Of a stretch of DNA of 64,000 nucleotides, positions 25,516 through 34,902 are shown in pieces. The translations under genes and the position numbers were made by a program. Position 1 is the first letter of the stretch, and each line of letters begins with the position of its first letter. Below the pieces are notes generated by a model that saw only the letters and a list, made by a program, of their open reading frames with translations, was not told where the DNA came from and searched no databases. Origin of the DNA: Curvularia clavata (Eukaryota); assembly GCA_023920165.1 (NCBI GenBank), contig CP089279.1, positions 744,001 to 808,000 on the forward strand, in the 5' to 3' direction.

Positions 25516-28081
25516 ATGGCAATGTCGTTACGGGCAGCGCGCCTGCTGGGCCGCAGGCAGATAGCAGTATGTTCTCCGGCACACCCCAAACTCCTCCATC
25601 TGACGTCGCATCCAGCCTCGGGTGAGCGTTGCTCTCCGCGCCTCTCCGCAACCGACTCGATTCCACGTCGCCCCGCGAGCCTTCTCTGTCTTCGCGAGCC
25701 GACGCGAGGCCCAGGATGTGTTCCCCTCACTGCGGGAGAGCCCAGCCGCCAGCTTCCTCTCGTCGCTCAACGAGACGCCCAAGACTCCCCAGACCCTCAC
25801 AGAAAAGATTGTCCAGCGACATGCTGTGGGCGTTGCGCCAGGCAAGGTCCTTCGTTCGGGCGACTATGTGACGTTGCAGCCGCACAAGTGCATGACACAC
25901 GATAACTCGTGGCCCGTTGCGCTCAAGTTTATGGGTATCGGGGCTACCAAGATCAACGACCCCTCGCAGATTGTCATGACTCTTGACCACGACGTCCAGA
26001 ACAAGTCAGAAAAGAACTTGAAGAAGTACAGCCAGATTGAGGAGTTTGCCAAGAACCAGAACGTTGTCTTCTACCCTGCGGGACGTGGCATTGGGCACCA
26101 GATCATGGTCGAGGAGGGTTATGCCTGGCCTGGCACCCTGGCCGTGGCCTCCGACAGCCACTCTAACATGTACGGTGGCATTGGATGTTTGGGTACTCCG
26201 GTCGTGCGAACCGATGCTGCAAGCATTTGGGCAACCGGCAAGACATGGTGGCAAATCCCACCCGTTGCAAAGGTTACACTCAACGGCAAGATGCCTGCGG
26301 GTGTGACTGGCAAGGACGTTATTGTAGCACTGGCTGGACTCTTCAACAAAGACGAGGTTCTCAACCATGCCATTGAGTTTACTGGAACCGATGAGACTCT
26401 CGGCAGTATCCCCATCGATGACCGTCTTACCATTGCGAACATGACTACTGAGTGGGGTGCTCTGACTGGACTGTTTCCCATTGATGCCACGCTTCATGGC
26501 TGGCTTCGAGCCAGAGCTACACTAGCAGCCATGGGAGAGGGCCAGGCCAAGGACCACCACCAGCAACAGTTCATCCACGAGCGCATTGACAAGTTGTTTA
26601 CCGCCACTGGCATTGTTGGTGAGAAGCTTGGCCATATCTTCAAGCCTGCGCTGGCAGCAGACAAGGGTGCTGTGTACGCTAAAGAGCTGTTCTTGGATCT
26701 TTCTACTTTATCCCCATATGTCTCGGGCCCCAACTCCGTCAAGGTTGCTACTCCTCTGCTGGAGTTGCAGAGCCAAAACATCCCCATCAACAAGGCTTAT
26801 CTCGTATCCTGCACCAACTCCCGTGCTTCTGATATTGCAGCTGCCGCAAACGTCTTCAAAGACGCAGCTATTCTGAACAATGGCAAGATCCCAAAGGTTG
26901 CAGACAACGTCAAATTTTACATTGCGGCTGCCTCTATCCCAGAACAAAAAGCCGCCGAGGAGGCAGGCGACTGGCAGACTCTCCTAGAAGCAGGCGCCGA
27001 GCCGCTGCCTTCAGGTTGCGGCCCTTGTATTGGTCTTGGTACTGGTCTTCTTGAGCCAGGTGAGGTTGGTATCAGTGCAAGCAACCGCAACTTCAAGGGT
27101 CGCATGGGCTCTCCTGATGCAAAGGCATACTTGGCTAGTCCCGAAGTCGTTGCAGCAAGCGCGCTTTCTGGCAAGATTTCTGGCCCTGGATGGTACCAGG
27201 CTCCCGAAGGTTATGAGGGCGTTCGACGAGGAGAAGGCGACGGTATTCCTGCCGAAGAGCGTATGATGACCATCGAAGACATGCTTGAGAAGGCAATCAA
27301 GGATGCTGAGGCTGCCATTGATACCTTTGGCAGCACTGAAACCGAAGCTCAGTCAGCAAACGCATCTGCGTCTGCAGGCTCGGAGGCTGAAACCTTGACC
27401 GAGATTCTGCCAGGCTTTCCGGAAAAGATTAGCGGCGAGATCGTCTTCTGCGACGCCGACAATATCAACACCGATGGTATCTACCCTGGCAAATACACGT
27501 ACCAGGACGACGTAACTCGCGAAAAGATGGCCGAGGTATGCATGGAGAACTACGACCCCAGCTTTGGCCAGGTAGCCAAGGCCGGCGATGTCCTTGTTAC
27601 AGGCTTCAACTTTGGATGCGGTAGCAGTCGTGAACAAGCCGCAACCGCCATTCTGGCCAAGGGCATTCCCCTAGTAGTTGCAGGCAGCTTTGGCAACATT
27701 TTCAGCAGGAACAGTATCAACAATGCCTTGATGGGTGTCGAGGTACCCAAGCTAGCCAATCGTCTCCGCGAGGTCTTTTCATCAAAGGATGCTTCGTCGT
27801 CACAGCAAGCCATCAAGGAGCCCTCAAACAACAGCGAATCGCTCGACTCGCCACCACCAGCGGCCGCCGCTCAGCCCAGCCAAGCTAAGCAGCTGACGCG
27901 CCGCACTGGATGGACTCTGGAGTGGGATGTCCGAAGAAGCACTGTTACTGTCCAGGAAGGACCGAACGGCCCCAAATGGAATGTAAAGGTTGGTGAGCTG
28001 CCACCAAATGTTCAGGAAATCATTGCTCTTGGTGGTTTGGAGAACTGGGTCAAGAAAGAGATTGGCAGTCCTCCATCGTGA
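25516..28081 (+). CDS. LYS4: Homoaconitase, mitochondrial (alpha-aminoadipate lysine pathway)
   Basis: Exon 1 [17 protein letters not shown] (25516-25566), intron 25567-25615; [37 protein letters not shown] and [10 protein letters not shown] motifs. Confidence 0.95.
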
Positions 28082-30878: not shown

Positions 30879-31472
30879 TTTTGTAGGCTGGGCGTGATGT
30901 GTTTGATGTATGTACTATATGGGAAGCGCGGGGCTATCACTATGGGCGCCTGCGACTGACAGGCTGGGCTGCGTCTAATGTAACGACGTACGATAGACCG
31001 GGCACTTTTGGAAGCGAACTATACATTCTCCATTCTCTCAAAGGCTAGGCTGTTAACCGGTACACATGTGAAACCACGGCGAACCTGCGTCCTTTGTCAC
31101 GTGCGTGCGTCCACCGACACGGCCCCGGCTTATCGCGAGAGCCGTTTTGCTTATTGCAATTTAAGTGGTAACGGACTTCCAGATGGCAAGTCACATGTCA
31201 GACAGTGCTGTCAGTCTCACTAGGGTAGGCTAAGCGGCGCTCAGGCTGCCGTGAATGTGATGTTCTGTTGCGACGATCCGGCATGACCATGGGGCTGAGT
31301 GCCAAGCTCACGCCTCTGGTATCCGCAGGTGTGCACCTCATCCTCCACTTCCTCCACATCTCGTCCACCCCCGACGACGCGCGATACCCCACGATCTACC
31401 TATACAACCTACTTTTCTCAGCCTTCGCCTTCTAGTCCTTGCTTTTGCCATACCCCTTGTAACGCCGCAACC

Positions 31473-32426
31473 ATGAACCCCGAGTGGTACGTAACCTCCG
31501 TGCGAAGCCCACCGCCACAGCCTGAGAGACGATGGCCATGTACCCGGGTATAGAACCATGCTAACTTGAGTTACTACAGAGTGCTCTCCTTGTCCTGCAG
31601 CCCTGCTTCGGCGCTGCCGTCCCCGCTTGCACGAACAGCCCACTGACGCTTCTCGGCACAATAGATACGACTATCTCTTCAAGCTCCTCCTCATCGGAGA
31701 CTCTGGTGTCGGAAAGTCGTGCCTGCTCCTCCGTTTTGCCGACGACACATACACTGAGAGCTACATCTCAACCATCGGCGTTGACTTCGTGCGTCTGCCT
31801 GGACACTCGCTGCTGGTGCCTGCCACGGACTAACATGGACGACTAGAAAATCCGAACGATCGAGCTCGATGGCAAGACTGTGAAGCTGCAGATCGTGCGT
31901 ACACTCGATGAATGTATAGGTTTTGTTTGTGAGTACTAACAGTGTTTCTAGTGGGATACTGCCGGTCAAGAGCGTTTCCGCACCATCACCTCCTCCTACT
32001 ACCGTGGCGCTCACGGCATCTGCGTTGTCTACGATGTCACCGACATGGACTCATTCAACAACGTCAAGCAGTGGCTACAGGAGATTGACAGATATGCTAC
32101 CGAGGGCGTCAACAAGCTGTTGGTTGGTAACAAGTCCGATATGGCGGACAAGAAGGTTGTCGAGTACACCGTAGCAAAGGTACGTCCATGTCTTCGTTTT
32201 TCTATGACTTTGGCGCTTAACACATCAACAGGAATTCGCAGACAGCCTGGGCATTCCATTCCTGGAGACCTCCGCAAAGAGCGCTACCAACGTTGAGCAA
32301 GCTTTCCTTACCATGGCCCGCCAGATCAAGGAGCGCATGGGTACCACAACCGCCAACACCAAGCCCACAGTCCCCATCGGGCAAGGTCAGGGTGTGCAGA
32401 GCGGATCCGGCGGCGGCTGCTGCTAG
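31473..32426 (+). CDS. YPT1: Rab1/Ypt1 small GTPase
   Basis: [46 protein letters not shown] and C-terminal GGGCC. Complex first intron 31484-31664; further introns 31789-31846, 31895-31951 and 32180-32231. Confidence 0.97.
31484..31664 (+). other. Nested spliceosomal twin intron (stwintron, [D3,4]): inner intron 31487-31579 interrupts the outer donor GTG|AGT
   Basis: Two complete branch/acceptor sets (GCTAAC..TACAG ending 31579; ACTGAC..AATAG ending 31664). Of the routes using canonical donors, only two-step excision restores GA|A TAC GAC TAT (EYDY). Confidence 0.85.
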
Positions 32427-33366
32427 AGAAAGGAAGGCAAGAGTTCAAATGTGTCGGAGACACGTATAAGCGTTCAAGGACGAATGAGATACGACGTGGG
32501 CGCCTGATTTTGGGTCTACATGCGATTCCGAGAAGTGGAGTGGTACAACCTTAGTGCGCACTGATACAAGACGGCCGTATTCTCCCCTTTCGTCACACCC
32601 CTCTCCGTCTCCGTATCGGTCTTTGTGCTAGCATGGCGACGCAAACTCGCTTAGAATGGGGGCTCTCGTTTGGATTTCTGGGATATGCTGGTTTCTGCAT
32701 TGCAATTTGTGATGGCCGCTAGGTCCTCTGTTTCCTTCGGTGCGTTCTAGGTGTTCTTAATATGGACAATTATACTTTATCCCAGAGCTTCTTGCTTGCT
32801 TGGCATGCCGATGTGTAATGACGTACTGACACACAGCGGGCATCCTTGTGGTGGCGCCCAAAAGCAAGTTCTTAGTTCACGGTACGGTGCTTTTCTACCC
32901 ATGATAGACCGAGAACCCCCACTTGCTGTATTTGACTTGACCAGAGCAGATGCAGCTGTGTATGTGTTTTTTATGTTTTTTCTTTTTCAATATCAAATCC
33001 GTCTTTGGCGGCACTATAGCTATGTGACATGCGGTGTATGTATAGTCTCGCCCCCTTCCCGTTTCGGGTAACAAGTTGAAAAGTCGGCGCCAACCTATTG
33101 CGCGTCTCTTTCAGGCATCCACGTCGAATACCCGGGTCGAGTTTGGACAACAAGATCGCGTTTTATCGAGTCTTTTCTACTTTGATTTTCTCTCATCCTT
33201 GTCTATTTGCAGAACTGCACTGGTACTTTGCAGCATCTTGTTTCGCACTTCTTACCTGCCTCCCTCATCCTCACGACACCGACATTCGCTTCCGTGACCC
33301 TGCCGTATATCCGTGAATGACGACCTTACTGCGTTTCCGCCCCAACGTCTCATTTTCCACAGCAGC

Positions 33367-34902
33367 ATGTCTATCTACAGCAGCATCTTAAACGCTTTAC
33401 AATGGCTCTCCCAAGAATTCGGTCTCTCTACCATGAGAAAAACCGGCAAAGACGTCTACCTCATCATTCTGGCGCGCTATTTGCGCCTCTTTGCCTACGG
33501 CGCCGTAGCCCTCATTCTCGCGCTTTTCTTCCAAGAGCAAGGCTTCTCCGACGAGCAGATTGGCGCGTTCATGACGCTGACTTTGCTCGGGGACGTGGTG
33601 ATTAGCCTGCTGCTTACGCTTGTTGCGGATGCCTTGGGGCGCAGGCGCACGTTGCTGCTGGGTGCGTTGTCCATGGCGATTTCAGGCGCCGTGTTTGCGA
33701 CTACGAGTAACTATCTGGCGTTGCTTCTCGCGGCCATTGTGGGTGTGATTAGTCCAACGGGAAATGAGATTGGGCCGTTTAGGGCCATCGAGGAGTCGAC
33801 GTTGGCGCATTTGGTGGATGAGAAAGAGAGAGCCGATGTGTACACTTGGTATGTTGTCTTGGCGGTGCTGGGGACGTCGACGGGGCTGGCTGTGGGTGGT
33901 GTTGCGGTCGATAGGTTGTTGGCCAGAGAGGGCTGGACCGCGCTGGATGCGTATCGTGCGATTTTTTGGATCTACACGGCTGTGGGGTGCGTCAAGGCGT
34001 TGATGGCGCTCTCCATGAGCCAGCGGTGTGAGCAGCATGGCAAGATTGATAAGAATAATGATGCTCGTGCATCGGATGAGACTGAACCGTTACTGGCAAA
34101 TGCGGATGTACCAACTCAAGAGGAGGAGCCTGCGAAGCCTGAAAAGAAGAAGAGGTTTTGGCACTCAATCAGTACCATATCGAAACCCAGTCGCATAGTA
34201 CTAGTCAAGCTTTGCAGCTTGTTCTTTCTCGATTCTCTAGGCTCGGGCATGGCTCCTTTCAGTCTGATCAACTACTATCTGGACCGGAAGTTTAACCTGC
34301 CAAAAGGGAAACTGGGAGGCATCATGTCGGCAACTTGGTAAGTCTCAGTACTAAATATTTATGTTCGATTAGCTGACTGATGTTTTAGGTTTGTCTCAAC
34401 GTTTGGTAATGTCTTCTCCTCCAGCCTGGCTAAGCGCCTCGGCTTGATCCAAGCCATGGTATTTACTCATCTGCCATCCTCCGTCTTCCTGGCCTTACTT
34501 CCGGTTCCATCTGGTCTCGGACCAACCATTTTTCTACTTGTGGCTCGCTCTGTTCTCAACTCCATGGATCAAGCACCTCGGTCGGCTTTTCTTTCTATCG
34601 TTGTTCTACCAGAAGAGCGGACAGCGGTCATGGGTGTAGTCAACATCCTCAAGATATTGAGTCAGAGTAGCGGTCCGAGTGTTACGGGCCTCCTTGCCGG
34701 TAACAATCATTTCTGGGTTGCGTTTGTGGCGGCGGGCTGCCTGAAAGCAGTGTATGATGTTTTGTTACTGGTGTTTTTTGGGGGCAGAGTAGAGTCGCGC
34801 AAGCATACGATTACTGAGCAAGATGAGATTAGACAGGACACAGACGGGGCCATAGAGGAAAGTGCGTCTGGGGAACGGACCGAAGTCCAGAGGTCGGCTT
34901 GA
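33367..34902 (+). CDS. MFS transporter, substrate unknown
   Basis: Motif A-like ADALGRRRTLL; about 12 TM segments; intron 34338-34388. Confidence 0.88.

Follow-up and report, generated by a model that had tools for sequence, protein, structure and literature searches.

Stwintrons, or spliceosomal twin introns, owe their definition and their name to Flipphi, Fekete and co-workers. In PMC7138796, [D1,2], [D2,3], [D5,6] and [A2,3] stwintrons are listed as demonstrated, a first [D4,5] stwintron and the sensu lato types [D6,7] and [D7,8] are added, and two-step splicing is shown by RT-PCR for the types [D1,2], [D2,3], [D4,5] and [D5,6]. The only Xylariales stwintrons of types other than [D1,2] in the accessible text of the 2021 paper are those of bioDA (D2,3) and rtnA (D5,6), and a 2022 stwintron paper describes [D1,2], [D5,6] and [A2,3]. 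The [D5,6] stwintron of rtnA is reported across nine Pezizomycotina classes (PMC7138796, PMC6616335). Nearly all described stwintrons belong to [D1,2], the other types being called rare (PMC12403724). The original prediction on the locus studied here, made from the letters of the DNA, named [D1,2], [D2,3] and [D5,6] as the main known types: all three are published, and the list has to be extended by [D4,5] and by the sensu lato [D6,7] and [D7,8] (PMC7138796). Neither a [D3,4] type nor a case in YPT1 was found in the accessible parts of the stwintron literature, the predicted list of 2013 lying outside the search, and as far as that literature goes [D3,4] is a new split position of the known donor-disrupted class.

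Here we describe the first intervening sequence of the Rab1/YPT1 gene in a window of 64,000 nt from Curvularia clavata, the window being the whole stretch of DNA that was analysed. This sequence is probably a donor-disrupted [D3,4] stwintron, from which the inner intron leaves first and the outer intron afterwards.

Materials and methods

The RNA data are assembled contigs of four runs (X3, X9, X4 and X8) from four studies, mapped to positions 31350-32450 of the window; the four were chosen from 21 runs found, all 21 of them as assembled contigs. A search of metagenome contigs with the exon-4 peptide yielded 80 loci from a set of 567 confirmed relatives, and 78 of the 80 show a tblastn match to exon 2. 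The upstream regions of six high-identity loci and 26 further loci were read by eye and all 80 loci were scanned for ATGAAYCCNGA; the loci beyond those read by eye are cDNA-like or of low identity. Loci L003 and L005 end too early upstream for judging and were left out.

In the shuffle test, the first 9 and the last 30 nt of each intron were fixed and the interior was shuffled with its dinucleotides preserved, in 5000 trials per intron. The target was a branch element followed by YAG/WGT, placed so that neither of the two resulting units was shorter than 45 nt; here and below, a slash within a sequence or between two coordinates marks a splice joint or the boundary of a unit.

Structure of the YPT1 gene and of its first intervening sequence

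The gene has five exons (Table 1), and its mature coding sequence gives a protein of 201 amino acids which starts with MNPEYDYLFK and ends with CC, presumably the Rab prenylation motif. The Ras family model of Pfam (PF00071) matches exons 2, 4 and 5, and the comparison of exon 4 with PDB gives Rab-1A (3.7e-40) and YPT1 of yeast (1e-36) as the best matches, the next subfamily, Rab-10 (5e-26), scoring far lower. The identity originally proposed, Rab1/Ypt1, is borne out by the Ras family match, by this best similarity to Rab-1A/YPT1 and by the C-terminal CC. YPT1 is essential in yeast. The aconitase and MFS_1 reading frames which flank the gene look like ordinary neighbours.

Table 1. Positions in the window of the YPT1 gene, of the elements of its first intervening sequence and of the flanking reading frames
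Feature	Positions	Strand	Description	Evidence
Aconitase-family ORF, upstream	25622-28081	+	Pfam Aconitase/Aconitase_C	Pfam
YPT1 exon 1	31473..31483	+	ATGAACCCCGA = ATG AAC CCC GA, phase 2 of Glu codon	Sequence, RNA contigs
Outer intron, split donor, first 3 nt	31484..31486	+	GTG; GTA or GTG in orthologues	Sequence
Inner intron	31487..31579	+	93 nt; equivalent units of 60-183 nt at 6 orthologous loci	Sequence
Inner donor	31487-31492	+	GTACGT	Sequence
Inner branch element	31560-31565	+	GCTAAC, branch A 31564	Sequence
Inner acceptor	31577-31579	+	CAG	Sequence
Outer intron, remainder	31580..31664	+	85 nt	Sequence, coordinate slicing
Completion of outer donor	31580-31582	+	AGT, giving GTG/AGT	Sequence
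Outer branch element	31642-31647	+	ACTGAC, branch A 31646	Sequence
Outer acceptor	31662-31664	+	TAG	Sequence
Exon 2	31665..31788	+	Opens ATACGACTATCTCTTC, A TAC GAC TAT ...; P-loop GDSGVGKS	RNA contig joints, Pfam Ras family
Intron 2	31789..31846	+	58 nt, donor GTGCGT	RNA contig joints, donor census
Exon 3	31847..31894	+		RNA contig joints
Intron 3	31895..31951	+	57 nt, donor GTGCGT	RNA contig joints, donor census
Exon 4	31952..32179	+	WDTAGQE, switch II region	RNA contig joint (cut +2)
Intron 4	32180..32231	+	52 nt, donor GTACGT	RNA contig joints, donor census
Exon 5 to stop codon	32232..32426	+		RNA contigs, translation
MFS transporter ORF, downstream	33313-34341	+	Pfam MFS_1	Pfam

On direct reading, the letters of positions 31473-31680 match the earlier description exactly, with GTG, the 93-nt inner intron and the segment from AGT to TAG in the places given to them. 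The whole intervening sequence measures 181 nt: an inner unit of 93 nt and an outer unit of 88 nt, made of the 3 nt upstream of the inner intron and the 85 nt downstream of it. Coordinate slicing gives GTGGTA as the genomic donor, GTACGT as the inner donor and GTGAGT as the fused donor, in agreement with the predicted assembly of GTGAGT from GTG and AGT on removal of the inner intron.

The donor consensus of fungi is quoted as GURWGY (PMC12403724, PMC7138796). At its positions 4, 5 and 6, the genomic donor GTGGTA disagrees with this consensus, and it lacks the G at position 5 (G5), which is present in all 23 other YPT1 donors of the census (introns 2-4 in the window and in seven related loci); on both counts it is the poor site that had been supposed. 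The outer donor is split between its nt 3 and nt 4, which corresponds to [D3,4] geometry, and the locus shows the features of stwintron class [D]: a pair of U2 introns, one nested in the other and both complete with donor, branch element and acceptor; an internal intron placed inside the 6-nt donor of the external one; and an external donor which, in a sequence-level comparison with GURWGY, becomes canonical once the internal intron is gone. U12-type (minor) introns have RTATCCTT-like donors. The donor region of YPT1 intron 1 reads GTGGTACGTAAC and contains no RTATCCTT-like donor, and no Rfam match that would indicate an RNA hosted by the intron is found at E<=1 within 31000-33000. The second AG (31580-31581) was considered as the inner acceptor and rejected: its use gives the fused donor GTGTGC in the window, but a donor without G5 in L004 or L006.

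Splice joints in RNA contigs and products of mis-splicing

Contigs of all four runs contain the joint 31483/31665, which skips 181 nt with GT..AG ends, and four joints are identical in the four runs: 31483/31665, 31788/31847, 31894/31952 and 32177/32230, the last of which corresponds, with the cut moved by +2, to an intron at 32180-32231. The GTG at 31484-31486 is therefore intronic, and the mRNA reads GA/ATACGAC (MNPEYDYLF); the GA/A join, proposed earlier as something to be looked for in RNA, is thus found in four of four runs. Each run has one fully spliced contig (n=4); neither the predicted intermediate joint 31486/31580 nor a retained intron is present in any of them, even at the word depth of 1871 reached in X3. 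Contigs drop rare variants, so this single spliced form argues neither for nor against a two-step route. Among the 80 related loci, the scan for ATGAAYCCNGA gave no partially spliced contig. In contigs of three of the four runs, position 32372 shows C>T, which changes GTC to GTT, is synonymous by frame reading and is probably strain variation.

In silico translation gives MNPE followed by a stop both when only the inner intron is removed and when the inner donor is joined to the distal acceptor. These translations agree with the earlier claim that the two alternative splices read ATG AAC CCC GAG TGA, and every mis-splice tested in silico stops at codon 5. The idea that ordered splicing might act as a checkpoint is unsupported, as the data only show the tested mis-splices stopping at that codon.

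Conservation of the nested signals in related loci

All seven genes with an intron after GA show the nested geometry: the window gene and those of loci L001, L002, L004, L006, L007 and L035. They share a layout composed of GA/GTR/GTAnGn, an nYTRAY element located 12-27 nt before YAG/WGT, a second branch element and a final YAG/ATAYGA, and the same nested layout is shown by L035, a more diverged locus whose N-terminus differs. A search for this layout in relatives had been suggested, and GTR/GTAnGn ... YAG/WGT is present in six diverged metagenomic orthologues. The fused donors are, in the above order, GTGAGT, GTATGT, GTGAGT, GTAAGT, GTAAGT, GTAAGT and GTGAGT; L001 has TGT instead of AGT as the downstream half of the donor and nevertheless a canonical fusion. 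The inner and outer units measure, in the same order, 93/88, 99/136, 183/78, 69/111, 60/132, 81/111 and 63/100 nt, each unit thus ranging from 60 to 183 nt and the whole intervening sequence from 163 to 261 nt. Canonical introns exceeding 160 nt in length are termed rare in A. nidulans (PMC6616335). When the seven regions are aligned with MAFFT, only the ends are invariant and the interiors are unalignable, which indicates that the nested signals were kept while their surroundings diverged.

Some loci show further particularities. L002 has an extra CAG/AGT (L002:1499-1510) with no nYTRAY within 40 nt; it precedes the predicted inner acceptor by 73 nt and could be an alternative inner acceptor. 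The outer introns of L004 (1680-1706), L007 (1700-1727) and L035 (1680-1704) lack a well-placed CTRAY, and their nearest outer branch candidates, CTCAC or CTTAC, do not reach the strength of the inner ones. Another relative, L055 (868-900), opens with ATGAACCCAGAGCA followed by GTAAGA and, judged from these letters, may be a different Rab gene with an intron at this same offset.

On shuffling, between 41 and 154 of the 5000 trials per intron (0.8-3.1%) contain the inner signal, with 112 of 5000 for the window intron. Multiplied over the seven introns, and with independence assumed, these frequencies give 4e-13, a figure that overstates the significance, as the motif was chosen after the data had been seen and the seven genes share ancestry. 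None of the eight single introns that other lineages have at the neighbouring position contains the nested signal, against its presence in seven of the seven introns after GA. Without the branch requirement, YAG/WGT occurs once in 2832 nt of control introns and eight times in 1404 nt of nested introns; the control introns are probably those of further eukaryotic groups, in which the branch signals may not be the same.

Relation to the single Rab1 intron of other lineages

The eight loci of the neighbouring position (L009, L016, L017, L024, L025, L029, L042 and L071) contain a single ordinary intron, located between bases 2 and 3 of a Tyr codon (TA/Y), with a canonical donor, GTRAGT or GTGCGT, and a following exon that starts with Y GAY TAY or Y GAY TTY. 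Exon 1 is ATGAAYCCNGARTA in L016, L017, L024, L025, L029 and L071 and ATGAATCAAGAATA in L009; L042 has a different N-terminus, but its exon 1 likewise ends in TA. In the nested genes, the inner donor occupies exactly the TA/Y offset, 14 nt from the ATG, and four of the seven keep GAGTA at this position, the letters with which exon 1 ends in L016 and L024. On both sides, the nested genes have their final splice sites 3 nt upstream, GA/ versus GAGTA/ at the donor and /ATAC GAC versus /C GAC at the acceptor, and the sole difference between the mRNAs of nested and single-intron genes is GAA for GAG.

Read from these sequences, the stwintron would be derived from the old Rab1 intron, the old exon end having given the GTR half-donor; the gain of ATA on the acceptor side is unexplained. 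It is quite possible, although we stop short of calling it probable, that the YPT1 [D3,4] stwintron is ancient and widespread in filamentous ascomycetes and goes back to a pan-eukaryotic intron of Rab1 placed in the Tyr5 codon, with the former donor turned into the inner donor and the exon-1 end GAG TA as source of the GTR half, while both splice sites shifted upstream by 3 nt and the mRNA changed only synonymously, and that only its split position is absent from the published donor series. If so, an essential gene would naturally depend on splicing in two obligatory steps and would preserve an intermediate of a 3-nt intron shift.

Proposed splicing route and alternative explanations

In the proposed route, the inner donor GTACGT (31487), a good U1 target which overlaps the weak outer donor, would pair by intron definition with the nearest GCTAAC ... 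CAG, and the 93-nt inner intron, with its acceptor end at 31579, would leave first. GTG would then join AGT and create the consensus donor GTGAGT directly after exon 1. In the second reaction, GTGAGT would be used with ACTGAC ... TAG (end 31664), and removal of the 88-nt outer intron would produce CCC GA/A TAC GAC (MNPEYDY). The original prediction had called this ordered two-step splicing obligatory. The nested geometry it described is conserved in seven of seven genes together with a poor genomic donor; from that conservation it would follow in which order the reactions take place and that the first one is needed, and the word obligatory has to be read in the same conditional sense.

The same mRNA would result if the 181 nt formed an ordinary intron that leaves in one reaction, with GTGGTA (31484) as donor, 31664 as the acceptor end and the inner signals idle; such a reaction predicts an outer lariat starting with GTGGTACG. 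The contigs, which drop rare variants, give only one GT..AG skip of 181 nt, as this explanation expects, and non-consensus donors occur in fungi. We consider it quite unlikely, since it leaves unexplained why a branch element and YAG/WGT are present in seven of seven unalignable introns against none of the eight controls, and has to use a donor without G5, unlike the 23 other YPT1 donors of the census; moreover, from what is understood of splice-site recognition, a much better donor overlapping 3 nt downstream would be expected to compete for U1. An error of assembly or sequencing, or a different N-terminus, has nothing in its favour and is rejected as extremely improbable. The same 5' layout (GTR/GTA) is found at six independent metagenomic loci and the mature joint in four of four runs, which makes a sequencing error at 31484-31487 unlikely, and the RNA contigs match the window without indels through the 5'UTR and exon 1. 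There is no ATG within 31350-31472 and, by reading, no other intron AG restores the frame from the inner donor.

A mixed or uncoupled mode, in which U1 binds the inner donor and cleavage takes place sometimes or always at the GT 3 nt upstream, or in which one-step and two-step routes lead to the same mRNA, has precedents: the [D6,7] sequence of L. starkeyi leaves in one or two reactions (PMC7138796), and one-step missplicing of [D1,2] stwintrons is on record (PMC12403724). The published one-step routes, however, use a canonical donor and alter the mRNA, whereas the YPT1 contigs show a single mature junction and a one-step reaction from the inner donor gives MNPE-stop. The conserved inner acceptor also argues for its use, and we regard the mixed mode as unlikely. 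Two successive reactions, the inner intron leaving before the outer one, thus stay the preferred reading.

Comparison with described stwintrons and recursive splicing

Stwintrons serve as models for the origin, movement and loss of spliceosomal introns, and a [D3,4] stwintron in a single-copy, highly expressed gene would fill a gap in the donor-split series. YPT1 would be an easily assayed model, since every tested mis-splice ends in MNPE-stop, and models of intron sliding could be tested on its displacement by 3 nt from an intron position that is widely shared. Programs for gene prediction that insist on a consensus donor may get the first exon of YPT1 wrong.

In the recursive splicing of long animal introns, the first reaction regenerates a 5' splice site for the second one at so-called ratchet points. 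The ratchet donor starts at the new junction (AG/GTAAGT) in very long introns, whereas in the YPT1 gene of the window the junction falls inside the donor (GTG/AGT) and both units are shorter than 100 nt.

The stwintrons of bioDA ([D2,3], in Sordariomycetes and Botryosphaeriales) and lipS ([D1,2]) resemble that of YPT1 in having a U2 intron nested in the 6-nt donor of another, in residing in a well-conserved gene with a layout conserved over broad Pezizomycotina taxa, and in being located at or beside the position of a standard intron of other lineages (PMC5639578). They differ in the split, which falls after nt 3 in YPT1 and after nt 1 or 2 in bioDA and lipS, and in the host, which here is Rab1/YPT1; furthermore, a distance of 3 nt separates the outer splice sites of YPT1 from those of the standard intron, whereas those of bioDA and lipS share its position (PMC5639578). 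The [D4,5] stwintron of a reticulon-like gene of Lipomyces lipofer and the [D5,6] stwintron of rtnA in Pezizomycotina are, like that of YPT1, donor-disrupted first intervening sequences with units of ordinary size (PMC7138796, PMC6616335). Their fused donors are GUGA/GU or GUAAG/U, with splits between nt 4 and 5 and between nt 5 and 6, against 3 and 4 in YPT1. The splicing intermediates of the reticulon-like gene and rtnA were sequenced, whereas for YPT1 the two-step route is proposed from its anatomy, its mature junction and its conservation. In the reticulon-like gene and rtnA the 5' remnant holds most of the donor, whereas YPT1 takes half of it (WGT, including G5) from downstream of the inner intron.
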